Below are positions 9,651-32,764 of a DNA stretch of 35,967 bases, in pieces. Both the position numbers and the translations under genes were made by a program. The notes beneath the pieces were generated by a model, which saw only the letters and a list, made by a program, of their open reading frames with translations, was not told the origin of the DNA and did not search any database. The DNA comes from Deltaproteobacteria bacterium (GTDB taxonomy: Bacteria; Desulfobacterota; Binatia; Bin18): assembly GCA_016200595.1 (NCBI GenBank), contig JACQEL010000583.1:1-35967 (forward strand), given 5' to 3'. Position 1 is the first letter of the stretch; each line of letters begins with the position of its first letter.

Positions 9651-9668
9651 GCAGAGGCACGAAAGCTG

Positions 9669-12965: not shown

Positions 12966-15802
12966 GCTTTGCGGTAGGGTCGCTTGTCAAAGCACGAGGA
13001 AGGGAATGGGTCGTCTTGCCGGAATCGGAGGACAATTTGCTCGTACTCCGTCCTCTTGGCGGCACTGAGGATGAGGTCACGGGCATCTATCTTCCACTTG
13101 AACGAGTCGAGTCGGCGCGTTTTGACCTACCCGACCCCACACAGCTTGGAGACGACCGTTCCTGCCGCTTACTTCGTGATGCGGTGCGCCTCGGATTTCG
13201 CGCCAGCGCCGGCCCGTTTCGCTCGTTCGCCCGCATCGCTGTCGAACCGCGTCCTTATCAGTTGATACCTTTGTTAATGGCGCTGAAACTTGATCCCGTA
13301 CGCCTGTTGATTGCTGATGATGTCGGCATCGGCAAGACTATCGAGGCGTGTCTCGTCGCCCGTGAATTGATTGACCGTGGTGAAGTCGGACGTCTCGCAG
13401 TCCTGTGTCCACCACAGCTGGCGGAGCAGTGGCAAGCGGAACTACGCGACAAGTTCCACATTGACGCTGCGCTGGTGCTTCCCGGTACGGCCTCCCGGTT
13501 AGAGCGAGACTGCGGGCCGACGCAGTCGTTGTTTGATCTCTACCCCTACGTGATCGTTTCGACCGATTTCATCAAGTCAGACCGTCGGCGCGACGAATTT
13601 CTCCGCACCTGCCCCGAGCTAGTCATCGTTGATGAAGCCCACACCTGCGCCTCTGCCGCAGAAGGGTGGGGAGGTCGGCATCAGCGTCATCAATTAGTCT
13701 CTGGTCTGGCAGCCAACCAGAACCGCCATCTCATTCTGGTCACCGCGACCCCTCATAGCGGTAATGAGGAAGCGTTTCGTTCGTTGCTTACCTTATTGAA
13801 GCCAGAGTTTGCCCAGCTACCGCCAGATCTCATGGGCCGAGAGCACGAAGCTCAGCGCCGGCAGCTTGCTGCCCATTTCGTAGAGCGACGACGCGGAGAC
13901 ATTCGCCGCTATTTAGAGGCTGACACCCCTTTCCCCGAACGGGAAGAGAGCGAACAGACTTACAAACTTTCCGATGGCTACAAACGGCTCTTTGAGCGGG
14001 CGCTGAAATACGCGCGTGAGACTGTTGCCGATCCGGCTGGTCACACCCATCGCCAACGAGTCCGCTGGTGGTCGGCGCTGGCGCTGCTACGTTCTTTGGC
14101 CTCCAGTCCTGCGGCAGCCGCAGCCACCTTACGCAGCCGCGCCGCCGTGGCGGACACCGAAACCCCGACCGAAGCCGACCAGATTGGTCGCCGCGTTGTG
14201 CTCGATCTCATAGATGATGAATCGGCAGAGGGCGCGGACCTTCCTCCTGGCAGTGATCCCGGCGAGGAAAATGATGATGGGCATGGCAATCGACGCCGTC
14301 TCCTAGAGATGGCGCGAGAGGCTGACGCCTTACAAGGGGATAAGGATGAGAAGCTGAAAAAAGCAATCAAGCTGGTGGAGGTCTTGGTGAAAGATGGCTT
14401 CAATCCGATCCTCTTTTGTCGTTTTATTCCCACGGCTGAATACGTGGCCTTGGCGCTGCGGGAGAAGTTACCAAAGAACATAGATGTCGCAGCGGTCACT
14501 GGCACGCTGCCGCCTGCGGAACGGGAAGAGCGGGTGCTGCAACTCGCTCAGGCGCCTCGGCGTGTGCTCGTCTGCACCGATTGTTTGAGTGAAGGTATTA
14601 ACCTGCAAGAACACTTCGACGCAGTCATGCACTATGATTTGTCCTGGAATCCGACCCGCCACGAGCAGCGCGAAGGACGAGTGGATCGCTATGCGCAACC
14701 GAGTAAAACAGTGCGAGTGTTGACGTATTACGGCGTTGATAACCAGATTGATGGTATCGTGCTTGATGTGCTGCTGCGGAAGCATAAGACTATCCGCAGC
14801 TCGCTTGGCATTTCTGTCCCGGTTCCAATCGACCCTGACCAGGTCATCGAAGCGATCTTTGAGGGACTGCTCCTGCGAGAGAGTTCGGGTAAGGGACAAC
14901 AGTATCTCCCTGGATTTGAAGAAATCCTCAAACCGCAAAAGGAAGACCTCTTCCAGAAGTGGGATGCCGCGACAGAACGAGAGAAGCGGTCACGGACGAT
15001 GTTTGCCCAAGAGACCATCAAAGTCGATGAAGTCGCTCGCGAACTCACAGCAGTGCGGGCAGCGATTGGTTCAAGCGTGGACGTTGCCACGTTCACTAAA
15101 GAGGCCTTCCGTGTCCAGGGTGCGGTCGTCAGCGAGAATGGTGCTGTCCGCTTTGATCTCACCGAAGTGCCCCGTGCTCTGCGTGAAGCTGTTGGCAACT
15201 ACGAGCGCCTGACCGCCCGCTTTGAACTTCCTATTAAGGATGGACAACTATACCTGAGCCGCACCCACCCGATCATTGAGGGTTTGGCGAGTTACGTCAT
15301 GGATACAGCTCTTGATTCGCTGGGGCAGGGAGTTGCACGTCGTTGCGGCGTGATCCGCACCAGCCAGGTGGAGCGCCGTACCACCGTACTGCTCGTGCGC
15401 TGCCGGTACCATATCGTTACACAGCGCGGTGACACGGCAGGCATGATGCAGGATTCCCCTCCTCTCTTGGCGGAAGATTGCCTTGTCCTGGCTTTTGCTG
15501 GCGCTCCACAGAGTGCGCAGTGGCTGGATGAGAAGCGGGCGGAGGAACTGCTGCACGCTCATCCTGAGACGAATGTGTCGCCGGACCAAGCCACCCACTT
15601 CTTGGGGATTGTCATTGATGGCTTTGCGGCGATTCAGCCTCAGCTCGATCGGATCGCTGAACAGCATGGCCAGGAGATCTTGGCGGCACATCGCCGCGTG
15701 CGGCAAGCTAGCCGACTGCGGAACGTGCGGTACACAGTCGAACCCCACTTACCTCCCGATGTGCTTGGTGTGTACGTGTACCTCCCGGTTAGTGGACGGT
15801 GA
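12962..15802 (+). CDS. SNF2-family helicase (DrmD-like)
   Basis: PYQLIPLL..LLIADDVGIGKTIEA (motif I), VIVDEAHTC (DEAH), LVTATPHSGNEE, and LSEGINLQ...YDLSWNPTRHEQREGRVDRYAQ (motifs V/VI). An ATGA overlap links it to the upstream stop. Confidence 0.85.
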   Translation: MSFAVGSLVKARGREWVVLPESEDNLLVLRPLGGTEDEVTGIYLPLERVESARFDLPDPTQLGDDRSCRLLRDAVRLGFRASAGPFRSFARIAVEPRPYQLIPLLMALKLDPVRLLIADDVGIGKTIEACLVARELIDRGEVGRLAVLCPPQLAEQWQAELRDKFHIDAALVLPGTASRLERDCGPTQSLFDLYPYVIVSTDFIKSDRRRDEFLRTCPELVIVDEAHTCASAAEGWGGRHQRHQLVSGLAANQNRHLILVTATPHSGNEEAFRSLLTLLKPEFAQLPPDLMGREHEAQRRQLAAHFVERRRGDIRRYLEADTPFPEREESEQTYKLSDGYKRLFERALKYARETVADPAGHTHRQRVRWWSALALLRSLASSPAAAAATLRSRAAVADTETPTEADQIGRRVVLDLIDDESAEGADLPPGSDPGEENDDGHGNRRRLLEMAREADALQGDKDEKLKKAIKLVEVLVKDGFNPILFCRFIPTAEYVALALREKLPKNIDVAAVTGTLPPAEREERVLQLAQAPRRVLVCTDCLSEGINLQEHFDAVMHYDLSWNPTRHEQREGRVDRYAQPSKTVRVLTYYGVDNQIDGIVLDVLLRKHKTIRSSLGISVPVPIDPDQVIEAIFEGLLLRESSGKGQQYLPGFEEILKPQKEDLFQKWDAATEREKRSRTMFAQETIKVDEVARELTAVRAAIGSSVDVATFTKEAFRVQGAVVSENGAVRFDLTEVPRALREAVGNYERLTARFELPIKDGQLYLSRTHPIIEGLASYVMDTALDSLGQGVARRCGVIRTSQVERRTTVLLVRCRYHIVTQRGDTAGMMQDSPPLLAEDCLVLAFAGAPQSAQWLDEKRAEELLHAHPETNVSPDQATHFLGIVIDGFAAIQPQLDRIAEQHGQEILAAHRRVRQASRLRNVRYTVEPHLPPDVLGVYVYLPVSGR

Positions 15803-15876
15803 TCGGTGGTCGGTAAAGGTCAAGGGTTAGTCCTCCCATTGATCATCGACCACTGAACTAGCATACTTGCCTTCTC

Positions 15877-15902
15877 CCAACTATGATAGTTGCTATAGTT
15901 GG
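15877..15902. promoter_or_regulatory. Nested palindromes upstream of the antitoxin gene (candidate TA operator)
   Basis: In ccaactatgatagttgctatagttgg, caacta-tga-tagttg is a perfect inverted repeat, and ccaactat pairs with atagttgg. It abuts the GGAGG RBS at 15901-15905. Confidence 0.4.
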
Positions 15903-15911
15903 AGGTGTTGC

Positions 15912-16184
15912 ATGACAGAAAAGGTCTCCACTTTAGAAGTTCGCCAGAAGCTCGGCGACATCCTGAATCGTGTCGCCCTCCGTCATGACCAGTTCATCAT
16001 CGAACGTAAAGGCAAGCCTTTGGCGGCGATGGTACCGGTCGAACAGTTTGAACAGATGCAGCGCGCGGCCCGCCTCCATTTGCTGCGGGTGCTGGATGAT
16101 CAGCCGGGAACCCTGTCACAAGAAGAGGCTGACCAGCTTGCCGACGAGGCGAAACACCGCACACGAAAATCCAAGCGGAAGTAA
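15912..16184 (+). CDS. Phd/YefM-type antitoxin
   Basis: MTEKVSTLEVRQKLGDILNRVALRHDQFIIERKGKPLAAMVPVEQFEQM is a typical Phd/YefM N-terminus. The ATG at 15912 is preceded by GGAGG, and the track start at 15867 is probably too far upstream. Confidence 0.8.
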   Translation: MTEKVSTLEVRQKLGDILNRVALRHDQFIIERKGKPLAAMVPVEQFEQMQRAARLHLLRVLDDQPGTLSQEEADQLADEAKHRTRKSKRK

Positions 16185-16190
16185 CTTCTC

Positions 16191-16622
16191 GTGCTCCGCG
16201 CCGTTCTTGATGCCAACGTACTCGCCAGCGCGCTGATCCGGCCACAGGGACCACCCGGGCAAATCGTGACTCGTTTCCTTGAGGATCATGCATTCGTACT
16301 CGTCGTCTCGGCTCCTATCCTCGAAGAGCTGCGCCGTTGTCTTTCATACCCGCGTGTGCGGAAATACCTGACTGTCACTGATGAGGAACTCGATCTGTGG
16401 GTGACCGCCCTTGGCCTGATTGCCGATTCAGTGGCAGGCGCTGCCTTTCTATCCGCGGTTGTTGCCGACCCTGACGATAACAAATATCTTGTTGCCGCGC
16501 TGGAAGGCCGTGCGGATTTCGTGGTCAGCGGGGACAGACATCTGCTCGATCTTGGAGAATACGAAGGTGTACGTATCATAACTCCACGCGCTTTCCTCCC
16601 CATGCTTCAACAGGAGAACTAG
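16191..16622 (+). CDS. PIN-domain toxin (TIGR00305-like)
   Basis: VLDANVLASALI (first acidic residue), ILEEL, and DPDDNKYLVAALEGRADFVVSGDRHLL. It starts at a GTG 6 nt after the antitoxin stop. Confidence 0.85.
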   Translation: MLRAVLDANVLASALIRPQGPPGQIVTRFLEDHAFVLVVSAPILEELRRCLSYPRVRKYLTVTDEELDLWVTALGLIADSVAGAAFLSAVVADPDDNKYLVAALEGRADFVVSGDRHLLDLGEYEGVRIITPRAFLPMLQQEN

Positions 16623-16623
16623 G

Positions 16624-19600
16624 ATGCAGCTCCGCCAGCGCGTTTCTTTCACTACTCTCCACGCGGAAGGCGCGATCCTTCCTGCCGACCTGCTCCAGCG
16701 CATTGCTGCTGGCGATCGCAATCTCACTGGACTCACCCCGGAAGACTATCACCTAGACAAAGGTGAGCGATTGAACGAGGCAACGAACCGTGCTTGGAAT
16801 CGTCTGGTTGGCACGTGGGCAACGTTTCGGGAGGCACGGGCAAAACTGTCTCCTGGCGATCTCGGTACGACGATTACGCGAGAGCGTTGGCTGCTTCCGC
16901 TGTGTTCTGAGCTTGGCTACGGACGCCTGCTCACCGCCAAAGCCATTGAAGTCGAGGGAAAGAGTTATCCAATTTCACACGGCTGGCAGCATGCACCGAT
17001 TCATCTCGTCGGCTGCCGCGTGGAGCTAGATACTCGCACCGCGGGCGTTGCCGGCGCTTCGCGGAGTAGTCCGCACGGACTTGTGCAAGAACTGCTCAAT
17101 CGTTCCGACAAACATTTGTGGGGATTCGTCTCCAATGGACTGCGGCTGCGTATTCTCCGGGACAACTCCAGTCTGACACGGCAGGCGTACGTTGAGTTTG
17201 ATCTCGAAGCCATGATGGAAGGTGAGGTCTATGCGGACTTCGTTCTCCTCTGGCTTCTCTGTCATGAGTCCCGGGTCGAAGCCGAACGACCGGCAGAATG
17301 CTGGCTTGAGCGCTGGTCCCGCACAGCCCAAGAGCAGGGCACTCGCGCGCTGGATCAACTCCGTGTCGGAGTCGAAGAAGCCATTACTGCTCTCGGCCGC
17401 GGCTTCCTGGTCCATCCGGCAAATCAGGGGCTGCGCGACAAGCTTCGTTCAGGGACATTAGAGAAGCATGAATACTACCGCCAGCTCCTCCGCCTGGTTT
17501 ACCGCTTACTCTTTCTCTTTGTGGCAGAAGATCGGGATCTGTTACTGAATCCGCAAGCCGACGTGGCTGCACGTGATCGCTACCAACGCTTCTATTCTAC
17601 TGCCAAATTGCGCCGCTTAGCTGAGCGCCGTGTCGGTACGCGGCATGCTGACCTCTACCACGGGCTTCGGCTGATTATACAAAAGCTCGGCAGTGATACT
17701 GGCTGTCCAGAACTCGCCCTCCCTGCATTGGGCAGTTTTCTTTTTTCTACGGAGGCGGTTCCTGATCTTGAGGGATGCGAAATCAGCAATCACGCTTTGC
17801 TGGATGCCATACGCGCACTGGCGTTTTCCACAGATAGTCACTCACGCCGGCTCGTCGATTATAAGAACCTTGGCTCTGAAGAACTGGGCAGCGTCTACGA
17901 GTCACTGCTGGAATTGCATCCAATCCTAAATGTTGATGCGGGAGCGTTCGAGCTCAAGACCGCTGGCGGTCACGAACGCAAGACCACTGGCAGTTATTAT
18001 ACGCCAACCAGTCTCATTCAGTGCCTTCTCGATTCTGCTCTTGATCCCGTGTTAGAAGAAGCGGCACGACAAGAAAACCCTGAAGCAGCAATCCTCAAAC
18101 TCAAAGTCTGTGATCCAGCGTGCGGGAGTGGCCACTTCCTGATCGCCGCCGCTCATCGTATCGCGAAGCACTTGGCTACAATCCGCACTGGTGATGACGA
18201 GCCATCCCCGGATGCAATACGTACAGCATTGCGCGACGTTATTGGTCACTGCATTTACGGCGTAGACGTTAATCCGATGGCAGTCGAGCTTTGCAAGGTG
18301 AGCCTATGGATGGAGGCGCTAGAGCCGGGCAAGCCGTTGTCTTTTCTCGATCATCGTATTCAGTGCGGCAACAGCCTGCTCGGTGCGACGCCAGCGTTGC
18401 TCAAGAAAGGCATTCCAGACGAGGCGTTTGATCCTATCGAAGGCGACGACAAGGAAGTGTGCCGAAAGTTCAAGAAGCTGAATAGAGAGGAGCGGAAAGG
18501 GCAAGGGTCATTGTTCGATGCATCTCTCCAACCATGGGAACGGCTAGGAGACCTCGCTGCTGGTCTGCTGAGCCTGGAGGAGATCTCAGACGATACCATT
18601 GCGGGCGTGCGGCATAAGCAGGAGCGTTACGAAGGTCTGGTGCGCTCCAGCGGCTACCTCTATGGCCGCCTGTGGGCCGATGCCTGGTGCGCGGCTTTTG
18701 TATGGAAGAAGACCAAGGAGTTTCCTTACCCGATCACTGAAGAAGTTTTTCACAGAATCGAGCAGAATCCCTTCTCTATTGCTTCTTGGATGCGCGAGGA
18801 GATCCAGCAGTTAGCCAAACAGTATCAGTTTTTCCACTGGCACCTAGTGTTTCCTGATGTCTTCTGGGTGCCGACAGGAAGTGAAGAACCCGAGAATGCG
18901 CAGGCTGGCTGGAGCGGCGGCTTCGACGTAGTGTTGGGCAACCCGCCGTGGGAACGGGTGAAGCTGCAAGAAAAGGAGTTCTTCGTCGAACGCAGCCCAG
19001 AGATCGCTAGTGCCTCTAACGCCGCCGTCCGTAAGCGCCTGATCACACAGCTGGTTGCTGACAACCCAAGCTTGATGGCCGAGTTTCAAACCGCTCAGCG
19101 CGAGGCCGAGGGCGAAAGTCATTTCATGCGCAACAGCGGTACCTATCCGCTCTGCGGTCGGGGCGACATCAACCTCTACACCATCTTCGCCGAAGCCGCC
19201 AGTAAACGCCTTGCTCCACCTGGACGTATGGGTCTCGTGCTTCCTTCCGGCATCGCCACCGACGATACCACAAAGTTCTACTTCCAAGATGTAATTGACA
19301 CCCGCTCGCTCGTCAGTCTATTTGATTTTGAGAACAAGGGCATCTTTCCCGGTGTCCACAGTAGCTACAAGTTCTGTCTCTTCACCGCCGGTTCTGGACG
19401 AGCCGCCCCGGCGGGGCGGAAGGACGGTGATGCCGCCGAGTTCGCGTTCTTCGCCCATTCCGTGGACGATCTCCAAGATCCCAAACGCCGCTACACCCTC
19501 TCTGCCGAGGACATTGCGCGTCTCAATCCCGACACACGTACTTGCCCCATCTTCCGTTCCAGCCTCGACGCTGGGCTTACGAAGACGATTTACGCTCACA

Positions 19601-20637
19601 CGACTATAGTTGGGGCAAGTGCATCTTCGGGCGGTTGGGGCGTCGACTATCTCCTCAAGCTCGTCGATCCGACTATTCACCGAGACCTCTTGGTAACAGA
19701 GGCTGAGGCCCTGCGGTTCCGAACTGGCGAAGCAACTGCCGAAAGTCTGGAAGGGCAAGCCTTGCCATTGTATGAGGGTAAGCAGATCCACCACTTCGAT
19801 CATCGCTACGCGACTTTCGACGGAGGCGAAGAGTGCAAGGTTAGTCTTCTAGATGACAAGCTTAAGGCGGGCTTTTCCGTGATGCCGAGGTACTGGCTGA
19901 GAGCGGCTGACTTCAAAGCGCGACTGCAGGGTCGCCCCATTCATTATCATGCATTCCTGTCGGTGAGAGACATTGCACGAGTGACGGACGAGCGCTCGTT
20001 CGTGACCGCCATTCGATCGTTTGTTCCAGCGCTGAACTCCCTGGGTAATCTCTTCTGCTGTTCTGCATCAGATGCGCTCTTTCTGTGTGGTTGCCTCAAC
20101 TCGTATGCAGCCGACTACGTTGCCAGGCAGAAGGTTGGAGGCACGCATCTGAGCCCTTTCTATCTGATGCAATTGGCGGTTGCCTCGCCCAGCAATGCAG
20201 GTCTCCGTACGCCTTGGTCAGAACCGAGCACCGCGAGACGGTGGGTGGAAGAGCGGGTTCTGGAACTTACCTACACCGCCTGGGACCTGGAGCTGTTCGC
20301 GCAGGACTGCGGTTGGAGCGGCCCACCCTTCTGCTGGGACGAGGAGCGGCGCTTCCTGCTACGCTGTGAGTTGGACGCAGCATTCTTTCATCTCTACCGC
20401 ATCACCCGCGAAGATGTAGACTATATCATGGAGACTTTCCCCATCGTTAAGCGTAAGGACGAGAAAAAATACGGCGAGTATCGCACTAAGCGTGTTATCC
20501 TGGAAATCTACGACGCTATGGCCGAAGCCATCGGCACCGGCAAACCCTACCAGACTCTGCTTGACCCACCGCCTGCTGACCCCCGCATGGCCCACCCGCT
20601 GCGACAGAATTCTGCCGCGCAGAGCATAAGACTCTGA
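16624..20637 (+). CDS. Large gamma-class N6-adenine DNA methyltransferase (DrmMI / PglX / Eco57I-like)
   Basis: SAM motif I VCDPACGSGHFLIAA, and motif IV VLGNPPWERVK (NPPW at 18940-18951), in a 1337-aa protein. The ATG lies 1 nt after the PIN stop, and the RBS AGGAG sits inside the PIN gene. Confidence 0.85.
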   Translation: MQLRQRVSFTTLHAEGAILPADLLQRIAAGDRNLTGLTPEDYHLDKGERLNEATNRAWNRLVGTWATFREARAKLSPGDLGTTITRERWLLPLCSELGYGRLLTAKAIEVEGKSYPISHGWQHAPIHLVGCRVELDTRTAGVAGASRSSPHGLVQELLNRSDKHLWGFVSNGLRLRILRDNSSLTRQAYVEFDLEAMMEGEVYADFVLLWLLCHESRVEAERPAECWLERWSRTAQEQGTRALDQLRVGVEEAITALGRGFLVHPANQGLRDKLRSGTLEKHEYYRQLLRLVYRLLFLFVAEDRDLLLNPQADVAARDRYQRFYSTAKLRRLAERRVGTRHADLYHGLRLIIQKLGSDTGCPELALPALGSFLFSTEAVPDLEGCEISNHALLDAIRALAFSTDSHSRRLVDYKNLGSEELGSVYESLLELHPILNVDAGAFELKTAGGHERKTTGSYYTPTSLIQCLLDSALDPVLEEAARQENPEAAILKLKVCDPACGSGHFLIAAAHRIAKHLATIRTGDDEPSPDAIRTALRDVIGHCIYGVDVNPMAVELCKVSLWMEALEPGKPLSFLDHRIQCGNSLLGATPALLKKGIPDEAFDPIEGDDKEVCRKFKKLNREERKGQGSLFDASLQPWERLGDLAAGLLSLEEISDDTIAGVRHKQERYEGLVRSSGYLYGRLWADAWCAAFVWKKTKEFPYPITEEVFHRIEQNPFSIASWMREEIQQLAKQYQFFHWHLVFPDVFWVPTGSEEPENAQAGWSGGFDVVLGNPPWERVKLQEKEFFVERSPEIASASNAAVRKRLITQLVADNPSLMAEFQTAQREAEGESHFMRNSGTYPLCGRGDINLYTIFAEAASKRLAPPGRMGLVLPSGIATDDTTKFYFQDVIDTRSLVSLFDFENKGIFPGVHSSYKFCLFTAGSGRAAPAGRKDGDAAEFAFFAHSVDDLQDPKRRYTLSAEDIARLNPDTRTCPIFRSSLDAGLTKTIYAHTTIVGASASSGGWGVDYLLKLVDPTIHRDLLVTEAEALRFRTGEATAESLEGQALPLYEGKQIHHFDHRYATFDGGEECKVSLLDDKLKAGFSVMPRYWLRAADFKARLQGRPIHYHAFLSVRDIARVTDERSFVTAIRSFVPALNSLGNLFCCSASDALFLCGCLNSYAADYVARQKVGGTHLSPFYLMQLAVASPSNAGLRTPWSEPSTARRWVEERVLELTYTAWDLELFAQDCGWSGPPFCWDEERRFLLRCELDAAFFHLYRITREDVDYIMETFPIVKRKDEKKYGEYRTKRVILEIYDAMAEAIGTGKPYQTLLDPPPADPRMAHPLRQNSAAQSIRL

Positions 20638-20653
20638 AGGAGAGTTGAGAGAA

Positions 20654-22297
20654 ATGGAGGACGGACAGTTGGAGCAACTTATCTGGTACACCGTTCCTGG
20701 GGCACTGGTAGTGGCAGCCATGCTCCTTGTTTGGCCTCACGTCCTCCAGCCGGATGGAATGACAGCACTCATTATTGCAGGGACCCCACTCCTGGGGTTT
20801 GTAATACATCAGGCATACCGGCTATTTTTCGAGTGGCGAGGTGGATTCACCCAGGAGTCACGCAGATCATTAGACATCCTTTGGCAGGCAATAGCGAGAC
20901 CTTGCGGATTTGAGAACTCCGATCATCGTTACACAAAAAGTTTCTTAATTTGGGAAATCACATTCTACGGAGAAGAGATCCCTGAAGGCTTTCGCGGTCA
21001 TGACAGAGGCGCATGGCACTACATCCTTTCGTTCCGGGCTAGTTCTTGGAGTAGCTTCTTCGCAGCGTTCATTCTCGTGTGGGCAATTTTATGGCGCACC
21101 TATACCAATACTCAACAAGGGAGCCTCTTTTATCTTATCATTGCTGCTTTGGTTGCTGTTGCTGTAGGATTTATTTTCTGTTTCAAAGGGAAGCAGACGC
21201 ACGAGAGCCTGATGAATCAAGAGATTGCTGTGATTTACCGCTATGCTGAAAAGTTTTCTGAAACCGCGAGAAAATTGCGCATTTTGGACAAAGGAGACAT
21301 CGTGGCAAGATACGTAGCTTGGGTCGATATTCTTGGCTTTGCTTCGCTAATGACAGCTGATGGCGACCGCGCCAAGCGTACCTGGACAGAACTACGTGAA
21401 TTAGTAAAGAAGCACCTTCCCGCAAAGGGAGGAGCTCAGGTGTACGGTATCAATGACGGCTTCTTCGCCATCAGCGAGGATCCCGCACTGCTCCAAGGGC
21501 TCGTAAGTATTTATCAGTCCTGGTTCGATAAATTTGCAGAGGTACCGGGTAGCCGGCCGTTACTTCGGGGGGCCATTTCGACAGCCTCTGCTGAGATTAC
21601 ACCCGAGCAAGAGGACTCTAATGTTTGTCTGTGGCTTGAGGGGCCTGGCTTTAGATATGCCTCTGAGTATGAGCAACTACTTCGGGGTTCCCGCTTGTTT
21701 ATTGACCCTACCGCTATTAAAGTTGCCGAAAGTGAGGCTAACCTATTCTGCTATGAGTGGGAGGAGATCTCTGGCTGGGAGCTCCCCGAAAATAGTAGGG
21801 GCATGCATCTAGGAGAGGTCCTTTGGCCTATTTCGGAAGACTCGGCAGAACTCCTAGTTCGTGCAGAAAAGTCGTTTAAGCTTTATGATGGAGCCTTTGC
21901 CGACTTTCTTCGCAAAGAAGCTGATGTTGGCCTAAAGGACGCACTTCCAAAGCTTCTTCAGTATGAGGAAACGCTCAAGCTGATGTTGCGCAGCATCGGT
22001 AAGAAATTACATGCCGATGCTGGCAAGAAGGAAGAGTTGGAGCAGTTCGTTTCAAGGATGCTAAAATATCGCCCAGACCAGTTTCGGTTGACATGGGGAG
22101 TTACGTTTGTTGCCCTTGAAGCAGTGTTCCTTGCAGGGTGCCTAGATGCTCACCATTATGCGCGGTGCGTCAAAGAATACCTCGGAAAACAGTCGAATAA
22201 CCTTGAAAATGTTCGGTTTGTAAAGGATTTTGAGGAGGAGCTAAAGCTCTCGACATATAAGCGCTTTTCAGAGTGGTGGCATTCCAACAGCAGATGA
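20654..22297 (+). CDS. Unassigned membrane protein: about 4 TM helices + divergent class III cyclase-like domain + helical C-terminal domain
   Basis: TM candidates are LIWYTVPGALVVAAMLLVW, MTALIIAGTPLLGFVIHQAY, SSFFAAFILVWAILW and LFYLIIAALVAVAVGFIFCF. Then come VAWVDILGFASLM...GAQVYGINDGFFAIS...LLRGAISTASAE...EGPGFRYASEYEQ. The ATG at 20654 has AAGGAG at 20637-20642, and the track's TTG at 20645 is too close to that RBS. Confidence 0.7.
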   Translation: MEDGQLEQLIWYTVPGALVVAAMLLVWPHVLQPDGMTALIIAGTPLLGFVIHQAYRLFFEWRGGFTQESRRSLDILWQAIARPCGFENSDHRYTKSFLIWEITFYGEEIPEGFRGHDRGAWHYILSFRASSWSSFFAAFILVWAILWRTYTNTQQGSLFYLIIAALVAVAVGFIFCFKGKQTHESLMNQEIAVIYRYAEKFSETARKLRILDKGDIVARYVAWVDILGFASLMTADGDRAKRTWTELRELVKKHLPAKGGAQVYGINDGFFAISEDPALLQGLVSIYQSWFDKFAEVPGSRPLLRGAISTASAEITPEQEDSNVCLWLEGPGFRYASEYEQLLRGSRLFIDPTAIKVAESEANLFCYEWEEISGWELPENSRGMHLGEVLWPISEDSAELLVRAEKSFKLYDGAFADFLRKEADVGLKDALPKLLQYEETLKLMLRSIGKKLHADAGKKEELEQFVSRMLKYRPDQFRLTWGVTFVALEAVFLAGCLDAHHYARCVKEYLGKQSNNLENVRFVKDFEEELKLSTYKRFSEWWHSNSR

Positions 22298-22420
22298 CGG
22301 CCACATAACAAGCGCTTGGAACTGATGCCGATGGAGTCGGTTCGGCAAAGCCGAGAGTTGCTGGCGGTGCAGTTCAAGCGCAATTAGCCGCTGGCATCTA
22401 TTGCCAAGCAAGGTTGCAAG

Positions 22421-23416
22421 ATGAAACCAAGCGATATTGAATCGTGGACCCTCGATATCATAGCTCGCGTTCGGGCTGGCCAGCCGATCGAAGACACCCG
22501 CGTCGAACTGAAAGCTGAGTGGCCGGAGGCATCAAAGGCCGCTCGTAGACTGGCTGGTCATGCCAATGCAGCTCGTGGTGAGCCCATTCTCTGGCTTATC
22601 GGTGTTGACGAGAAAAAAGGTGTTGTGGGTGCAGCACGGAGGGATCTCGCATCGTGGCTTCCACAAGTTTGTGCCGAGTTCGATCAGTTACCTCCCCCAC
22701 TTATTGACGTAAATGTTCCAACTGGAGACACTACCGTCGTTGCTCTGTATGTAGAAACAGAACGAGCTCCCTTCGTCGTACGTAATCCTGTTTTTGGACA
22801 GCAAGGGGGAGGTTCTGTTGAGAGAGAAGTGCCGTGGCGAGATGGAACTAAGATCCGCAGCGTCCGCCGAGAGGACCTTCTCCGTCTGCTTGGGCCGTTA
22901 AGACGAATGCCTAAGGTCGAAGTCCTTGGAGGCAGTGTCGAGGCCCGGGGTAGTAAATACAACCCTGTTGAGGGAGGTTACTCAAAGGTAGCTGGAGAAC
23001 AGAGCCAGTGGCAGATCAAGATCCCTCTCTATATCGTGCCGATGGATACTCAAGTTCTCACAATCCCCTTCCACCGCTGTATCGCAGAGGTGAGTATAGC
23101 AGGCATCCTTGAAGAGGCGAATTTCACGGTGCGTCGCCTTCGACCTATTAAGTGGAATCCTACTATCGCAGTCCCGGCTTCCGTTAACATCGTGACGTCT
23201 GAGTCAGAAACTGTGATACGCGGGCCAGGAAAGGTCGAACTGGAGGCATACTTTAAAGAGGAACATCTATCATCGACGTCGCACGGTTCAGGACGTCTGA
23301 AAGTCTGTTTAGCCTTGGCGGAAGTGGACAGGTCCGTCGTGATTGTCGGTAATCTCTTGCCGGTGAAGGAGTACGTCTTTGAGATGGCGAACATCAATGT
23401 CTCGTACTCAGTGTAG
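22421..23416 (+). CDS. Unassigned protein: N-terminal AlbA_2/Schlafen-like putative nucleic-acid-binding domain + beta-rich C-terminal domain
   Basis: EDTRVELKAEWP...LAGHANAARGEPILWLIGVDEKKGVVGA...VVALYVETERAPFVVRN...VPWRDGTKIRSVRREDLLRLL follows the AlbA_2 (PF04326) motif order as I remember it. No profile search was run. Confidence 0.55.
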   Translation: MKPSDIESWTLDIIARVRAGQPIEDTRVELKAEWPEASKAARRLAGHANAARGEPILWLIGVDEKKGVVGAARRDLASWLPQVCAEFDQLPPPLIDVNVPTGDTTVVALYVETERAPFVVRNPVFGQQGGGSVEREVPWRDGTKIRSVRREDLLRLLGPLRRMPKVEVLGGSVEARGSKYNPVEGGYSKVAGEQSQWQIKIPLYIVPMDTQVLTIPFHRCIAEVSIAGILEEANFTVRRLRPIKWNPTIAVPASVNIVTSESETVIRGPGKVELEAYFKEEHLSSTSHGSGRLKVCLALAEVDRSVVIVGNLLPVKEYVFEMANINVSYSV

Positions 23417-23573
23417 ACCGGCGGTCAGTCCTGTCGCATACACAACCTGTAACGGCAGTGTACCGAATCCCCTGTGGTTTGATTCAGTAGCGTGCATCTT
23501 TTCAGACCGTCTGCTTCTGAGGTGACGATGCGTCCTCTTTTTTCTCTCCCCTCTGCCGAACTACAATAGCGGT

Positions 23574-24200
23574 ATGGAAGACGACGAGACTCTTGAGGAA
23601 TGGCTCCACACAAGCAGTGTGGCATCTTTATTCCCACTACTGCGGCGAGGCCTCTATCATGTAACAAGCATAGAGGGCTACCGGGGGATTCGCCGTGATG
23701 GCTTTATTCGGCCTTGGGATGGAAGCTTTCGAGCTGCTTTCCCTAAGAGCAACAGTCACGCACGGCATCACGGTTGGGTTCCTCTGTTTGATTTCCAAAC
23801 GCCTACCGAGGAACAATACTTTCAAGTGAGACATCAATGGGGCATGTTCTTCGTAAAAGACGAGCCTGTCACTATTCTGATCCATCTTTCTCGGGAAAAG
23901 CTAGCGCCAAAGCTTATCCCCAATGAGGCTGTAGAAACAGAAGCAGATTACCGTCAGAGGCTGAGGATACCGTATGTAGAGGTGTGGTATCCAGAGCCGA
24001 TACCGTTGTCGGCCATCCAAAGCTTCATTCTCGTGTTTCCATCGAAGCCGGTGAGGTACCTCATATTTAGGGCGAATGAGGAGGGGCTCGCGGAACTTGA
24101 CAGAATACTTGGTGAAATAGAGGCTCTTATCGCCGCTGGCCTCATCAAAGTCCTCTCCACCCGCGACCGCTTCATAGCACGGCTTCGCCAGTCCTATTGA
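23574..24200 (+). CDS. Unassigned 208-aa protein, possibly ADP-ribosyltransferase-fold (DarT/DUF4433-like)
   Basis: [20 protein letters not shown] resembles the H-x-T motif, and [24 protein letters not shown] resembles the DarT C-terminal AEFLV...P...I..I.V motif. The similarity is weak and judged by eye. Confidence 0.5.
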
Positions 24201-24211
24201 AGGGTTGCTGG

Positions 24212-24397
24212 TGGGTAGATAAGGAGCATGTTCGACCCTTCGCCAGAGACTACGGCTACGATGGACCGTCGTCCCGCTGGGATAAGGAGCGGCGTTTCTT
24301 GCTGTGCTGTGAACTCGATGCTGCCTACTTCCACCTCTACGGCATCGCCCGCGACGACGTGGACTACATCATGGAAACCTCCCCTATCATGAAATAG
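24212..24397 (+). pseudogene. Relic of a second methyltransferase gene, 3'-end fragment part 1
   Basis: It translates to [52 protein letters not shown]. The intact methylase C-terminus reads [52 protein letters not shown]. Confidence 0.8.
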
Positions 24398-24424
24398 GTA
24401 GCTGAGAAAGAAGTAAAAGAACGC

Positions 24425-25090
24425 ATGGGAGATAGTCTATTACAAATTGAGGGCTTACGAGTAAAAAATGACGGCGACAGGACTGTCCGGCAATTTGCTC
24501 TTGATATCGACAGCTTGGAAGTCCGACCTAACGATTGCATCCTCATTCTTGCTGATCGATGTCATGGTAAGTCGGCACTGAGAGCTTCATTGAAAGCGAT
24601 ATTCTGTCAACCGCTGACCGAGGGGAATAACCTGGATATCCCACAGTGCGAAGAATCTAAACCTATAGTGCATGTAGACTCTCTATTCCGAAGAGAAGAT
24701 GCCTGTTTTCATGAGCAGGGTGGAGATCCTAAAGGACTTCAGGCAGTAGAGGACCGCTCAACGATTATCTACTGTGATGACCCGCTTTTTCCGCATACCC
24801 AGAATTCATCCAGCCGCGAGATTCTCGACACTGTTCGTAAAAGATCGCTGACTATGATGATGGCTAGTGATCCTGACAGGCTCCAAGGAACATTGGAGTA
24901 TCTTCTTACTCATCAAACGAGTCGCATTCTGTGGCTGTGTAACGGCAGGGTATTCTGGAACGGATTGGCAGGAGAGTTTCATACCTCCGTCGATGCACTG
25001 TGCGGTCGCTACCGGTCAGAAGCCGAACAAGGACGAAGCACTGAGAATTTTCTGAGAACAATCCACGCTGCGACTCAGAGATTCAATTAA
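24425..25090 (+). CDS. Degenerate ABC-ATPase-like protein (221 aa)
   Basis: The layout is ABC-like: LLQIEGLRV, Walker A degraded to ILADRCHGKSAL, Walker B IIYCDDPLF (no catalytic Glu), H-loop position MMMASDPD, and ILWLCNGRV. Confidence 0.5.
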   Translation: MGDSLLQIEGLRVKNDGDRTVRQFALDIDSLEVRPNDCILILADRCHGKSALRASLKAIFCQPLTEGNNLDIPQCEESKPIVHVDSLFRREDACFHEQGGDPKGLQAVEDRSTIIYCDDPLFPHTQNSSSREILDTVRKRSLTMMMASDPDRLQGTLEYLLTHQTSRILWLCNGRVFWNGLAGEFHTSVDALCGRYRSEAEQGRSTENFLRTIHAATQRFN

Positions 25091-25185
25091 GCATCCCCAG
25101 TTGTCGACATGCTAACTTCATCGCTCACACCTCGCTAAAAGCTACGGCAGGATACTGTCAAATTTTGAAAAGAAGGACTCTTCAT

Positions 25186-25401
25186 ATGGCCAACCAGAAA
25201 GTATCTCGGGAGGCAATCTTGGAAGAGTGGCGGAAGTCGCAACCAAAATCGGCTCCTGCGACATATCAAGAAAAGATGAACTTCTATTTATGGCTGGAGA
25301 AGGAACGACCTCACCTTCTCAAGTTTCGGATATCAGCAACTCAACAGGGCGACAAATGGCAAACGGTGCATGCTTGGCTAAACGAACATGACCTGCACTA
25401 A
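25186..25401 (+). CDS. Small hypothetical protein (71 aa from the ATG; the track starts at TTG 25165)
   Basis: The ORF reads MANQKVSREAILEEWRKSQPK...FYLWLEKERPHLLKF...DKWQTVHAWL. GAAGGA lies about 9 nt upstream of ATG 25186. I recognise no domain. Confidence 0.4.
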   Translation: MANQKVSREAILEEWRKSQPKSAPATYQEKMNFYLWLEKERPHLLKFRISATQQGDKWQTVHAWLNEHDLH

Positions 25402-25447
25402 TGGAAAGCTGCTCTATTGCCAAATACAGAGACAATGGGCAACACGG

Positions 25448-25594
25448 CAGTACCGAACCAAGTGCGTTATCCCAGAAATCTAGGATGCCATGGCCGAAGC
25501 CATCCGCACTGGTAAGCCCTACCAGACTCTGCTTGACCCACCGCCTGCCGACCCCCGCGTCGCGCATCCGGCAAGGGAGCGAGGGAGTCAGTGA
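25448..25594 (+). pseudogene. Relic of a second methyltransferase gene, 3'-end fragment part 2 (contains an internal TAG)
   Basis: The frame reads QYRTKCVIPEI*DAMAEAIRTGKPYQTLLDPPPADPRVAHPAR. The intact methylase reads EYRTKRVILEIYDAMAEAIGTGKPYQTLLDPPPADPRMAHPLR. The TAG at 25481-25483 replaces the Tyr codon. Confidence 0.8.
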
Positions 25595-25645
25595 GGAAAG
25601 AGGGGAGGAAGCGAAGAAGCGAGAAATAGGAGATCTCGACGCTCT

Positions 25646-26230
25646 CTAGCGAACGCTTCTCTGCCCGGCGTGTGTGGTCCTCACTGGTCCTCCAGGAATG
25701 CGGCCTAAACGTTCAAAGATGAGCTGGCAGATGGCAAGCTTCCCCGGGGTTAAGCGCAGAGGATAGTTACCGAAATTATACATCTCAAGCACAATGCGGC
25801 CGGGAAACCCGGCATGGATCGTTGGCGCGGTCAAGTGAACCACGAGCCCCAGCCGGGCTAACGTGCTCCGGCCTTCGACACGAGCAGCGATCTTCGATCG
25901 TCTTGGCAGCTCTAGGTACTCCCTGGTAATGCCCAAGACGAATTTCCCCGGCTGGAGGATGAAAGAGCCATCGGGTTCTTGGGGTAAGGGTTTGGCGTAT
26001 CTCCTAAGAAAATCCTTCAGGTCAATGTGTAGAGGATCGACAACGATGGGTCGTTCTACGCCTCTAGGTTCTTCTCGTGCCAGTTCCTCTGGCGTCTTCA
26101 GCTCAAAAATCTCATCGCCAAGAATGAGATCCAAGGCTGAGGTAGTGTACTGCTCTTCTGTCGGAAGCGGGTCGATCAGGATCTTTTTCTGACGCAGAGT
26201 CTCCCGAATTTCGCGGTCACTAAGAATCAC
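25646..26230 (-). CDS. dcd: dCTP deaminase
   Basis: 194 aa reading MILSDREIRE..., GRSTLARLGLVVHLTAPTIHAGFPGRIVLEMYN, with a GTG start. Confidence 0.9.
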   Translation of the reverse strand: MILSDREIRETLRQKKILIDPLPTEEQYTTSALDLILGDEIFELKTPEELAREEPRGVERPIVVDPLHIDLKDFLRRYAKPLPQEPDGSFILQPGKFVLGITREYLELPRRSKIAARVEGRSTLARLGLVVHLTAPTIHAGFPGRIVLEMYNFGNYPLRLTPGKLAICQLIFERLGRIPGGPVRTTHAGQRSVR

Positions 26231-26534
26231 GGTTGTTCTTCTCGATCAGTTCCTTTGGTACTCTCAGACGTGGCCCTTCTGCCAATCCTGGTTGGGGAAG
26301 ATCAATAAGGGCCGAATCCTTCTTGGTCTCAAGCACACTCACCTTCACTCGACCGTCCACTTCTTCCCCTGTCCGAGGGTCCCGGGAAACAAGGACACTA
26401 CTTTTGTCCACCAGAGCAGATATCCTACGTCCATCGGGAAGCTCGACCAACACCCCTCTCTCATGTGAAAACATCCCCTGAGAGACTTTGCATTTCAGCA
26501 GTGCTGTTGCTGACTCAGAGGTCTTCTTTTTCAT
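26220..26534 (-). CDS. Hypothetical small protein (104 aa) overlapping the dcd start by 11 nt
   Basis: An ORF with an MKKK start whose stop overlaps the dcd GTG. I recognise no motif. Confidence 0.5.
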   Translation of the reverse strand: MKKKTSESATALLKCKVSQGMFSHERGVLVELPDGRRISALVDKSSVLVSRDPRTGEEVDGRVKVSVLETKKDSALIDLPQPGLAEGPRLRVPKELIEKNNRDS

Positions 26535-30797: not shown

Positions 30798-30827
30798 TTG
30801 ACAGGTGGACGATTGTCCACCTATACT
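30798..30827 (+). promoter_or_regulatory. Sigma70-type promoter with a perfect palindromic operator filling the spacer (candidate LexA-like autoregulatory site)
   Basis: TTGACA (30798-30803), then GGTGGAC-GATT-GTCCACC (30804-30821), then TATACT (30822-30827). The RBS AAAGGAGAAGG and ATG 30874 lie downstream. Confidence 0.55.
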
Positions 30828-30873
30828 AGGGATAAGGGAAGTGGGCACTCGTTTGCCAAAAGGAGAAGGTACT

Positions 30874-31452
30874 ATGGATCCCATCCAGCGATTGCAACCC
30901 CTCATCCAGTTCTACCGGGGGCGAAGGCGCATGCCTAGTGTACGGGAGCTCGCCCGGCTGTGGGGCTTTCGCTCACAAAATGCGGCCGACAAGCTCGCGC
31001 GTCATCTTATTGCCCGCGGGTTCTTGGCCAAAGATACCACCGGGAAACTGCTCCCCAGCCGCTTCTTCTATGAGGTGCGGATCTTAGGGACGGTCGAAGC
31101 CGGCTTCCCTTCTCCAGCGGAAGAGGAGCTCGGGGACACCATGGATCTCGATGAGTTCCTCATTAAGAACAAGGAAGCTACCTACATGCTCAAGGTGACC
31201 GGGGACTCGATGAAGGATGCGGGGATCCTCCCGGGCGATATGGTGTTGGTGGAGCGTGGGGTAGAGCCGCACGACGGGGATATCGTCATCGCCCACATCG
31301 ATCACGCCTGGACCCTGAAGTATCTGCGCAAGCGCGGCCGTAAGGTCTGGTTGGAGCCGGCCAACAAGAGATACAAACCCATCTTTCCTACAGAGGAACT
31401 GAAAATTGCTGCAGTGGTCATCGCCGTCATTCGCAAATACCGTGATGAGTGA
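30874..31452 (+). CDS. LexA-family repressor / S24 peptidase
   Basis: An N-terminal wHTH-like segment (SVRELARLWGFRSQNAADKLARHL), the cleavage site VEAGFPSP, Ser motif VTGDSMKDAGILPGDMVLV and Lys motif WTLKYLRKRG. The track's GTG at 30805 lies inside the promoter. Confidence 0.8.
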   Translation: MDPIQRLQPLIQFYRGRRRMPSVRELARLWGFRSQNAADKLARHLIARGFLAKDTTGKLLPSRFFYEVRILGTVEAGFPSPAEEELGDTMDLDEFLIKNKEATYMLKVTGDSMKDAGILPGDMVLVERGVEPHDGDIVIAHIDHAWTLKYLRKRGRKVWLEPANKRYKPIFPTEELKIAAVVIAVIRKYRDE

Positions 31453-32764
31453 GGAAACTCCGCTCACCCTGCACGCGTTCCCGCGGGCCATCCTCCATAT
31501 CGATGGCGATGCCTTCTTTGCGTCTTGCGAGCAGTCCCGCAACCCCCACTTACAAGGCAAACCGGTGATCACCGGCAAAGAGCGCGGGATTGTGGCCTCG
31601 ATGAGTTACGAAGCCAAAGCTCGCGGAGTGACCCGCGGGATGCGCCTCTTCGAGGTGAAGCGGCTGTGTCCAGATGCGGTCATCCTGCCCTCGGACTACG
31701 AGACCTATAGCCTACTCTCGGTGCGCCTCTTTGCGATTGTCCGGCGCTATACGCCCGAAGTAGAGGAGTACAGTATCGACGAGTGCTTCGCTGATCTCAC
31801 CGGATTACGCCGGCCACTGCGGCTGTCGTACCAGCAGATGGCCGAGCGGATTAAGCACGCGCTGGATGCAGAGCTGGGGTTTACCTTCTCGGTCGGGTTA
31901 GCGCCGAACAAAGTGATTGCCAAGATTGCCTCGAAGTGGCAGAAACCTTCGGGACTCACGGTGATCCCGGGATACGGTATTCACCAGTTTCTCAAAGACG
32001 TGCCGGTCGGCAAGGTCTGGGGCATTGGCCCGCAGACCGCCGCGCTGCTGGAAAAGCACGGGATGCGCACGGCCCTGCAGTTTGCCCGCAAGTCGGAGGT
32101 CTGGGTCAAGAAGCTGCTGACCAAACCCTTCTACGACATCTGGCAGGAGTTGAATGGGCGCTACGTGTTGCCCCTCGTCACTGTAGAGAAAACCTCGTAC
32201 CAATCCATCCAGAAATGGAAGACGTTCACGCCTCCGTCGCGCGATCGCGATTTTGTGTTGGCCCAGCTCTCCAAGAATATCGAGAATGCCTGCCTCAAGG
32301 CCCGGAAATATCGGCTCGCCGCGCGTGGGGCTATCGTCTCGCTGAAGACCCAGCAATTTCTGGTGCGGGGGATCGAGGTAAAGTTCTCGCGGGCCACGGC
32401 CTTCCCCCATGACATTCTCCACGTGATTCAGCCGGCCTTTGCGCAGCTCTTTCAGTCCGACGAGGAATATCGCGCCACTGGAGTGGTACTGCTGCGCCTC
32501 GAAGAAGATACCATGCGGCAACTGGAACTCTTCGAGGACACACTCAAGATTGAGAAATTCTCCCGGGTCTATCAGGCGATGGATCACTTACGTGAGCAAT
32601 TCGGTAAGCACACGGTGTTTTTGGGGTCGAGTTATTTGGCCCACCGTTTCGCTCAGCACCTTGGGGCGCGAGGTGACGCGCCAGAGCGTACCGGGCGCCT
32701 CTTCAAAGGCGAGACCAAACGCAAGCGGTTGGCGATCCCGATGTTTATGGGGGAAGTGCGGTAA
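31445..32764 (+). CDS. Y-family DNA polymerase (DinB/UmuC-like)
   Basis: ILHIDGDAFFASCEQ, YSIDECFADLTG and GLAPNKVIAKIAS. The ATG at 31445 overlaps the end of the LexA-like gene by 8 nt. Confidence 0.85.
   Translation: MSEETPLTLHAFPRAILHIDGDAFFASCEQSRNPHLQGKPVITGKERGIVASMSYEAKARGVTRGMRLFEVKRLCPDAVILPSDYETYSLLSVRLFAIVRRYTPEVEEYSIDECFADLTGLRRPLRLSYQQMAERIKHALDAELGFTFSVGLAPNKVIAKIASKWQKPSGLTVIPGYGIHQFLKDVPVGKVWGIGPQTAALLEKHGMRTALQFARKSEVWVKKLLTKPFYDIWQELNGRYVLPLVTVEKTSYQSIQKWKTFTPPSRDRDFVLAQLSKNIENACLKARKYRLAARGAIVSLKTQQFLVRGIEVKFSRATAFPHDILHVIQPAFAQLFQSDEEYRATGVVLLRLEEDTMRQLELFEDTLKIEKFSRVYQAMDHLREQFGKHTVFLGSSYLAHRFAQHLGARGDAPERTGRLFKGETKRKRLAIPMFMGEVR

Follow-up and report, generated by a model that had tools for sequence, protein, structure and literature searches.

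The stretch of DNA analyzed here (the window) is one whole contig of 35,967 bp from the metagenome-assembled genome (MAG) "Deltaproteobacteria bacterium". Between positions 7770 and 20637 its + strand carries a split YprA-type helicase, an SNF2 helicase, a Phd/PIN pair, and a DNA methylase of 1337 amino acids (aa), and it is the 3' end of this methylase that is the subject of this study. Two fragments of that 3' end were found downstream of the intact gene and on the same strand, at ~24230-24404 (relic A) and 25399-25594 (relic B). The order of genes 3' of the methylase is open reading frames (ORFs) of 550, 331, and 208 aa, relic A, ORFs of 221 and 78 aa, relic B, and dcd in convergent orientation. 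The GC content is 0.48-0.53 over 20400-25200, compared to ~0.55-0.64 on either side. The features of this region are:

16624-20637, + strand: intact resident N6-adenine DNA methylase, ArmB/DrmMI-like and Eco57I-type, 1337 aa (Pfam Eco57I, N6_Mtase)
20645-24200, + strand: cargo 1, ORFs of 550 aa (membrane protein), 331 aa, and 208 aa, no family assigned
24230-24404 (start approximate), + strand: relic A, dead methylase 3' fragment, ~aa 1222-1276, ending in the METSPIMK codons (tblastn, nhmmer)
24425-25401, + strand: cargo 2, conserved two-gene module of 221 aa and 78 (or 71) aa, with homologues elsewhere
25399-25594, + strand: relic B, dead methylase 3' end, beginning at the M-E codons of METFPIVK and closing with a stop of its own (25592-25594) (tblastn, nhmmer)
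25646-26230, - strand: dcd (dCTP deaminase), a core gene and the right boundary of the island (Pfam DCD, 3e-34)

The recurrence of the methylase 3' end as two downstream pieces on the + strand, claimed in an initial annotation of this DNA, was recovered by a tblastn search of the 1337-aa methylase against the window, which placed relic A at 24239-24394 plus a tail (aa 1225-1276, E 1e-18) and relic B at 25448-25588 (aa 1285-1331, 77% identity, E 4e-16). A nucleotide hidden Markov model (HMM) of the last 186 nt of 55 family genes, the positions of which are given below as hmm coordinates, was then searched with nhmmer and matched relic A at 24356-24404 (hmm 1-49, E 2e-5) and relic B at 25399-25569 (hmm 14-185, E 1e-32). 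The reversed-sequence control returned zero matches, and the similarity of the segments is significant, as had been asserted. Relic A is detectable from ~24230, its homology stops at ~24404-24420, and the TAG reported at 24395-24397 is present, as is that at 25481-25483 in relic B, which adjoins the convergent dcd. The division into two pieces stands, but relic B had been started too late: it begins ~47 nt earlier, at 25399-25401, and this upstream stretch reads MESCSIAKYRDNGQHG in a different frame, which reveals a 1-nt deletion near 25447. With its 5' extension relic B aligns end to end with homologues, at a gain of ~10 bits (for instance, 72% identity to P0103 over 60 aa). Both relics hold the METxPIxK codons and consequently overlap by ~36 nt in methylase coordinates. 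Two in-frame TAG stops and one frameshift mark the relics as dead, and we infer that they have no present function.

The methylase has 8000 homologues, and its last ~120 aa are ~82% identical across phyla. Its gene consists of a conserved N-terminal part, a variable part at ~18960-20253, and a conserved tail of ~350 nt at 20253-20599. The variable stretch of ~1.3 kb is presumably the specificity (target-recognition) region. In the closest related systems (loci L168, L169, and L170) the helicases are 82-88% identical in aa to those of the window. The DNA of L170 aligns with the window at 76% nt identity, unbroken through the helicases and the toxin-antitoxin pair to ~18860, and in all three loci DNA similarity is lost at ~18860-18960 and comes back at 20253 for the last ~350 nt. 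Neither relics nor any of the cargo genes of the window are present in these three loci, which hold the closest methylase homologues. Rightward of the variable part, conservation thus first returns in the tail, which is a natural site for allele-exchange junctions.

Next we compared the relics with the resident 3' end. Relic A has a nt identity of 71-72%, a proportion of synonymous differences (pS) of 0.80, and a ratio of nonsynonymous to synonymous proportions (pN/pS) of 0.19; for relic B these values are 84%, 0.45, and 0.13, and it shares an identical 32-nt run with the resident (25517-25548 and 20545-20576). Among 52 family members, the resident ranks 33rd as a match to relic A, for which the best match is L071 (84%, from an actinomycete MAG), and is itself the best match to relic B (84%). 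The differences are mostly synonymous, so that the relics diverged as working alleles and not as local in-place duplicates. They bear the sequence signature of descent from other functional alleles, and the statement of the initial annotation that this is not a recent tandem duplication agrees with the pS and pN/pS values. The regions covered by relics A and B are about equally conserved in the family: across 1324 pairs of family tails from different loci, nt identity is 0.727 and 0.695 and pS is 0.68 and 0.69, respectively. A gap as large as that between the identities of relic A (0.71) and relic B (0.84) to the resident is found in 2% of these pairs.

The two relics delimit two sets of cargo genes. 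Cargo 1 has a GC content of 0.49-0.53 against ~0.55-0.64 in the flanks, and its genes were absent from all related loci that were compared. None of the five cargo ORFs had a significant family match in Pfam, PADLOC, or NCBIfam, with a sub-threshold AlbA_2 hint for the 331-aa ORF. Cargo 2 comprises the 221-aa gene (24425-25090), with a P-loop-like GKS / hhhhDD pattern, and the 78-aa (or 71-aa) gene (25165/25186-25401). The 221-aa protein has five homologues, 66-86% identical and with many invariant residues, so placed that the gene lies ~2 kb downstream of a same-family methylase in L081/L082, within a defence island in L080, and directly 3' of a different methylase-type gene in L084. An AlphaFold model of this protein, from a 6-sequence alignment, was unusable (mean predicted local distance difference test score of 35). 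The 78-aa protein has two homologues (L165 and L166), and in L165 its gene comes after the 3' end of one homologous to that for the 221-aa protein. Both contigs continue past the 78-aa gene with a 260-aa gene missing from the window, and the homology between the window and L165 stops at the stop codon of the 78-aa gene, which is where relic B starts. Because the module continues into the 260-aa gene elsewhere, the right junction in the window truncates the module and is not a natural cassette end. On the left side, a methylase-tail fragment of ~40 nt was found in L084 directly 5' of the conserved leader of the 221-aa gene (34/41 nt identical to the L069 methylase, ~hmm 20-60), a junction that matches the one where relic A ends. 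As a blind match this fragment is not significant (E 0.67) and it is convincing only by its predicted position. The sharing of this tail/221-aa junction with L084 indicates that the junction predates the lineage of the window.

These results bear on the view, taken in the initial annotation, that one copy was split in two by a ~1-kb insert, which does not hold as it was written. The pieces overlap by ~36 nt and differ in their relation to the resident to an extent seen in 2% of pairs, the junction between relic A and the 221-aa gene also occurs in the unrelated contig L084, and the right junction cuts a module that has three genes in L165 and L166. Overlap, unequal divergence, and junctions together favour two separate scars over one split scar.

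Two further ideas about these genes were discarded. A methylase-tail-like domain in the 260-aa third gene was rejected on negative HMM scores, and the shared frame of relic A and the 221-aa ORF, with one TAG between them, was attributed to chance and not to a former in-frame fusion, as the frames differ in L084. Other observations concern the wider neighbourhood of the module. A gene of L081 (7610-8356), directly 5' of the 221-aa gene, seems to be homologous to the 260-aa gene of L165 (638-1420), with which it has the C-terminal motif TLL.DIR..VETGTWK.P in common; the gene order of the module thus seems to be permuted between these contigs. The L080 island, where the 221-aa gene has its closest homologue, has many ubiquitin-like (ThiF/E2/JAB) genes and contains weak methylase-tail-like fragments at 7615-7690 (nhmmer E 1.4e-7) and 787-881 (E 0.002-0.045 by database size); no intact methylase was seen in the stretch of L080 that was read. 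A further cargo module that travels may be the pair of a ~280-aa gene and DUF5131 (L080 1027-2588, L081 11075-12639, L168 8370-9934), which recurs beside family methylases and beside 221-aa gene homologues.

Relics of the same kind were then sought in related loci, 79 from reference genomes and 80 from metagenomes, which had been found with the conserved C-terminal 123 aa; the ~160 loci examined come from at least ~1,100 matching stretches in the genome and metagenome scans. Partial tail copies were detected in L006, L015, L025, L043, L048, L059 (two copies), L069, L121/L156, and, weakly, L109, all of them 3' of an intact methylase and in its orientation. Including the two of the window, there are 11-12 such copies, compared to two weak ones on the opposite strand (one downstream, one upstream) and zero upstream on the same strand, for upstream and downstream search spaces that are about equal. 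Approximately 6% of the loci carry relics. The better-resolved copies, except relic A, reach the end of the conserved tail or come within ~10 nt of it (the weak L109 copy stops earlier). Their 5' starts vary: hmm -126 for relic A of the window, -60 for L006, ~95 for L059, and 108-110 for L121 and L048. The left boundary of the cargo ranges from 11 nt before the methylase stop to 75 nt after it. The repeats in loci other than the window measure 148-340 nt. Those of L006, L048, L059, and L015 are 87.5-94% identical to their resident (blastn), with shared lineage-specific C-terminal residues and no stops or indels. In the first three the similarity includes 12-75 nt of 3' untranslated region (UTR), and in L015 homology ends ~11 nt before the stop. 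The cargo between methylase and relic comprises toxin-antitoxin pairs (L015, L059), a pentapeptide-repeat protein (L006), a Schlafen/AlbA_2-HATPase protein (L025), and uncharacterized proteins, some of which (L069, L121) continue the methylase reading frame directly behind ...VAHP.

Three cyanobacterial loci form a nested series, in which the methylase (MT) is followed by Y alone in L015 (MT-Y), by X, a relic, and Y in L043 (MT-X-relic-Y), and by Z, a relic, X, a relic, and Y in L059 (MT-Z-relic-X-relic-Y). The downstream flanks of these loci are 92-96% identical, and the methylase bodies are unalignable upstream of the last 350-470 nt. All three derive from isolate genomes, among them a complete chromosome (L015, Egbenema; L043, Leptolyngbya; L059, LEGE 13415). 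The scars in ~10 other unrelated bacteria, across phyla, show that accessory genes repeatedly accumulate at the methylase tail. The part of the initial annotation that spoke of the scar of a replaced homologous methylase and of a hotspot for cargo exchange therefore stands, given the recurrent downstream same-strand copies, the nested series, and a cargo typical of defence islands (toxin-antitoxin, Schlafen/AlbA_2, pentapeptide-repeat); the single copy split in two is the part that does not.

Several side observations were made in these loci. Relics in L006 (10993-11310), L015 (11023-11268), and L069 (12569-12775) are intact small ORFs free of stops and indels, the one in L069 beginning exactly at the Met of METFPIVK; from their sequences, they may be recent scars or expressed stand-alone C-terminal peptides. 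Relic starts apparently cluster at the M-E-T codons (hmm 14-20: window 25399, L069 12569, L015 ~11082, L084 ~4007) and at the LLDPPP codons (hmm 139-144: L043 11077, L025 13596, L059 8925, L109 2029). About 20 of the 108 family methylases examined have C-terminal extensions of 150-210 aa right after ...PPPADPRVAHP (P0011, P0013, P0021, P0032, and P0081 among them), some of which are S24 peptidase domains. In L069 (10418-11002) and L121 (4200-4772) an extension and a further cargo gene lie between the conserved tail and the downstream relic. Two full-length family methylases occur in tandem on the same strand, ~4-5 kb tail to tail, in L003/L088, L015, L043, and L059. The methylase genes of L056 (8241-9775) and L037 (7837-9034) are interrupted by inserts of ~1.2-1.5 kb with opposite-strand ORFs, transposase-like by eye only, and the SNF2 gene of L168 (2185-3474) by an insert in the same size range, whose opposite-strand ORF is called UPF0236. 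A scan of viral contigs returned one distant, uninformative locus.

The window itself was searched for signals of mobility and recombination. Pfam, PADLOC, and NCBIfam scans of its ORFs revealed no recombinase, transposase, or integrase domain. A repeat scan of 20200-25700 found no terminal inverted repeats, target-site duplications, or junction direct repeats beyond chance, and the short direct repeats that the initial annotation had proposed to look for at the junctions gave chance-level matches only. An Rfam scan of 19500-26500 found no introns or other RNAs, and the counts of promoters and terminators predicted in 20300-26300 were no higher than in shuffled sequence. Synonymous-site conservation of the tail is not unusual (pS 0.68-0.69, equal to the neighbouring region), hence nothing points to a DNA-level recombination signal. 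Direct repeats longer than 30 bp do flank an insert without mobility genes (D1, 155 nt; D2, 122 nt), and there is no fixed core site across insertions, the relic starts being spread from hmm -126 to 144. Nor is there an integron-like array in the window, which has no integrase, no significant inverted repeats at the cassette ends, and no Rfam match. An insertion sequence or transposon splitting a relic was rejected, as the repeats are at chance level and the ORFs of the insert form a conserved non-transposase family. An intein or intron was rejected as well: Rfam gave no intron, the insert holds two genes, each with a start and a stop codon of its own and each present independently elsewhere, and the flanking pieces are overlapping and interrupted by stops. 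The same applies to phase variation from a silent cassette, since the repeated part is the most conserved region and not the specificity region, and is in direct orientation.

Taken together, we consider it somewhat more probable than any even bet would have it (roughly 55%) that the relics are scars of serial replacement of a methylase allele plus its cargo at the conserved tail. Relics A and B would then be the non-functional 3' leftovers of two earlier resident methylase alleles beside dcd. New alleles would arrive by horizontal transfer together with the accessory genes that follow them in the donor, with the left crossover in the conserved upstream genes or in the methylase body. The right end would join inside the conserved tail of the resident, by short-homology or homology-facilitated illegitimate joining and not by clean homologous exchange, whereby the distal part of the old tail would persist 3' of the new cargo. 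In the earlier of two events, a tail fragment that already carried the 221/78-aa module would have been joined, right where the 78-aa gene stops, to the methylase that then lay beside dcd, at the M-E-T codons of the latter, leaving relic B. In the later event, the present methylase and its three downstream genes would have joined ~55 codons upstream of the old junction, leaving relic A. Long relics may be lost quickly by recombination with the resident, which would bias survival to short ones. Such a history is an ordinary kind of event in a new place and not a new mechanism, with the same pattern across phyla, and no evidence for a dedicated cassette-capture mechanism was found.

Some of the results weigh against serial replacement. 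Clean homologous recombination leaves no relic, so that an extra, unobserved illegitimate step has to be assumed. The closest known methylase is only 67% identical, and no empty-site or donor sequence was found for the window. In a low-powered comparison of the similarity profiles of relics A and B across 111 family tails, made to see whether they share a source, rho was -0.08, against -0.16 for the resident gene itself. Relic A ends (hmm ~49-60) within ~40 nt of where relic B begins (hmm 14), as would also be expected if one relic had been split by an insert that made a small duplication. Finally, our own sum of counts across L006, L015, L048, L059, and L069 gives a pooled pN/pS of ~0.33, and copy pairs in loci other than the window share lineage-specific tails and 12-75 nt of 3' UTR, both of which fit partly with in-place duplication.

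A single relic (~aa 1222 to the stop), left by one replacement and later split by the 221/78-aa module, is an unlikely explanation, if one to be taken seriously. At the METFPIVK-KRKDEQKY codons the module would have entered a gene already dead or in decay, duplicating ~36-47 nt, and this entry could have been the Campbell-type integration of a circular module with a short tail-like stretch. The pieces lie in collinear order on one strand and almost adjoin but for the 36-nt overlap, the first ~45 nt of relic B are more diverged (76% vs 88%) as a module-borne copy might be, the module of L084 carries its ~40-nt tail fragment at the left end beside an unrelated methylase type, and the relics of L069 and L015 also start at the METFPIVK-KRKDEQKY codons. 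This has to be set against the unequal identity of A and B to the resident (0.71 vs 0.84, empirical p ~0.02), the truncation of the right end of the module relative to L165/L166, where no tail fragment follows the module, and the lack of a recombinase in the module. Moreover, the tail fragment 5' of the 221-aa gene is absent or a few nt long in L080 and L081, which fits erosion of a scar and not a carried attachment site. A different possibility is that the cargo entered in place with a long duplication of its target, the methylase tail being duplicated at entry and the copies diverging afterwards. Direct repeats of 46-423 bp without mobility genes are documented for restriction-modification genes (PMC2853133), and the copies of L006, L048, L059, and L015, 87.5-94% identical with shared C-termini and no stops or indels, look like this process. 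For the window it is nevertheless highly improbable: a neutral relic compared with a constrained gene should give a pN/pS of ~0.5, while the observed values are 0.13-0.19 at identities of 71%/84% and pS of 0.80/0.45, and the resident resembles relic A no more than a random family member does.

It is very unlikely that a dedicated process of cassette capture operates here, in which the tail would be a recombination site with hot points near the M-E-T and LLDPPPADP codons, used by a recombinase or by the nuclease and helicases of the defence system itself, with regeneration of the gene end and growth of integron-like arrays. The arrays of L043 and L059, with a tail copy at the head of every cassette, would fit this process, as would relic 5' ends at hmm 14, 16, 18 (~20 in L084), and 139-144 in independent lineages, the in-frame cargo fusions right after ...VAHP in L069 and L121, and the C-terminal extensions of 150-210 aa among family members. 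However, the clustering of the 5' ends is not robust in a scan statistic (p 0.015-0.056 with L084, 0.17-0.37 without it), other relics start at hmm -126, -60, ~95, and 108-110, and the left cargo boundary varies between 11 nt before the stop and 75 nt after it. The tail shows no synonymous-site conservation (pS 0.68-0.69), neither a recombinase gene nor a conserved structured motif was seen, and only ~6% of loci have relics. We regard as improbable also the broader notion that the ~350-nt tail of ARMADA-type methylase genes is a targeted landing pad for defence and toxin-antitoxin cassettes, where repeated capture regenerates or extends the C-terminus, also by in-frame domain fusions directly behind ...PPPADPRVAHP, and builds integron-like arrays without a dedicated integrase, possibly through the system's own helicase or nuclease. 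As for an assembly artefact, the window is a whole MAG contig and the tails of the resident and relic B share the 32-nt identical run, as might be expected if sequences of different strains had been joined into a chimera at the conserved tail. This is hardly credible, since a chimeric join gives one hybrid tail and not extra decayed copies, bearing stops and a frameshift, in unique sequence, and equivalent architectures exist in the isolate genomes L015, L043, and L059.

Upstream of the methylase, the remaining genes of the operon are:

7770-12965, + strand: YprA-type DExH helicase with MZB/DUF1998 and DUF559 (Vsr-like), ArmC-like or DrmA+DrmB-like (Pfam, PADLOC)
12962-15802, + strand: SNF2-type helicase, ArmA/DrmD-like (Pfam SNF2-rel_dom, Helicase_C)
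15867-16622, + strand: Phd/YefM antitoxin and PIN toxin pair, between the SNF2 helicase and the methylase (Pfam PhdYeFM_antitox, PIN_3)

The YprA-type helicase matched Pfam DEAD, Helicase_C, MZB, and DUF559 and the PADLOC models DruE and DrmA. It occupies two ORFs in the window (7770-9650 and 9669-12965) that are 82-88% identical to an unsplit 1734-aa gene of L170; the division may be genuine or may come from a frameshift or a sequencing error. This ArmC/DruE-like helicase is a single gene of 1732-1734 aa in both L169 and L170 (75-88% identity). The SNF2-type helicase matched PADLOC DpdE (4e-267) and DrmD (8e-84) and also NCBIfam DISARM_DrmD (5.8e-93), at 312.9 bits under a cut-off of 610 bits. 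The methylase matched PADLOC DrmMI (1.4e-73), and its translation contains the DPACGSGHF and NPPW motifs. The Phd/YefM-PIN pair is kept at the equivalent position in L170 (8173-8882, 83-86% aa identity), and because of this conserved position it is considered part of this sub-lineage of the system and not recent cargo. Three components of ARMADA or DISARM class 1 (an SNF2 helicase, a large N6-adenine methylase, and a YprA-type DExH helicase with DUF1998) are present. Neither the UvrD-like ArmD of ARMADA II nor the PLD nuclease DrmC of DISARM was detected among the scanned window ORFs of at least 180 aa, and no curated model reached its family cut-off for the operon proteins. The operon that owns the methylase is for these reasons described, from its gene content, as ARMADA/DISARM-class-1-like. 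An SOS mutagenesis cassette that is unrelated to the relics occupies 30805-32764, ~5 kb from the island; its first gene encodes a LexA-like S24 peptidase and the next a Y-family (ImuB/UmuC-type) polymerase.

Nobusato et al. (2000) reportedly described insertion with long target duplication, a process that L006, L048, L059, and L015 resemble. The window likewise has an insert without mobility genes between direct repeats far longer than the target duplications of transposons, but these repeats are old diverged alleles, and the insert is accessory cargo and not a restriction-modification system. In the process as described for restriction-modification genes, the long direct repeats in some cases overlap the 3' end of a gene (PMC2853133). 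The same work describes allelic substitution and substitution of target-recognition domains in these genes (Furuta, Abe & Kobayashi 2010, PMC2853133). As in those substitutions, the flanks of the window are conserved and a methylase body with a variable specificity region is exchanged; unlike them, the exchange repeatedly leaves a truncated old 3' end 3' of co-transferred cargo, and in place of a classical restriction-modification pair an ARMADA/DISARM-like operon of several genes is involved. Islands that integrases place at the 3' ends of genes and tRNAs (attL/attR) also leave the gene intact and a displaced copy of its 3' end at the far side, whereas the window has no integrase, variable repeat boundaries, and a truncated right cargo end. 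The defence hotspots of E. coli and Pseudomonas similarly hold variable defence and toxin-antitoxin cargo at a fixed position between conserved genes, yet here the left anchor is a defence gene itself (the methylase tail) and the scars record successive events. The gene set of the operon matches the descriptions of ARMADA, with ArmA (SNF2), ArmB (methylase), and ArmC (YprA helicase with DUF1998 and a Vsr-type nuclease), and of DISARM class 1 (PMC13463889). The window shares with ARMADA II and DISARM class 1 the SNF2 helicase, the adenine methylase, and the YprA-type helicase with DUF1998 and a Vsr-like nuclease domain, and differs from them in its gene order, the embedded Phd-PIN pair, the split helicase, and the missing ArmD/DrmC.

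Serial replacement at the methylase tail by itself reveals no new mechanism, and its main use is as a marker of defence-associated cargo and as a record of the island. If it is true, the scars would be a readable fossil record of the growth of defence islands, in which each swap of an allele (and so probably of specificity) adds accessory genes and pushes the older ones outward, such that the order of the cargo is the order of its acquisition. A same-strand partial tail copy downstream of an intact methylase would then be a searchable signature, and the genes between the methylase and the relics, here the 221/78-aa module and the ORFs of 550, 331, and 208 aa, would be candidate defence accessories.

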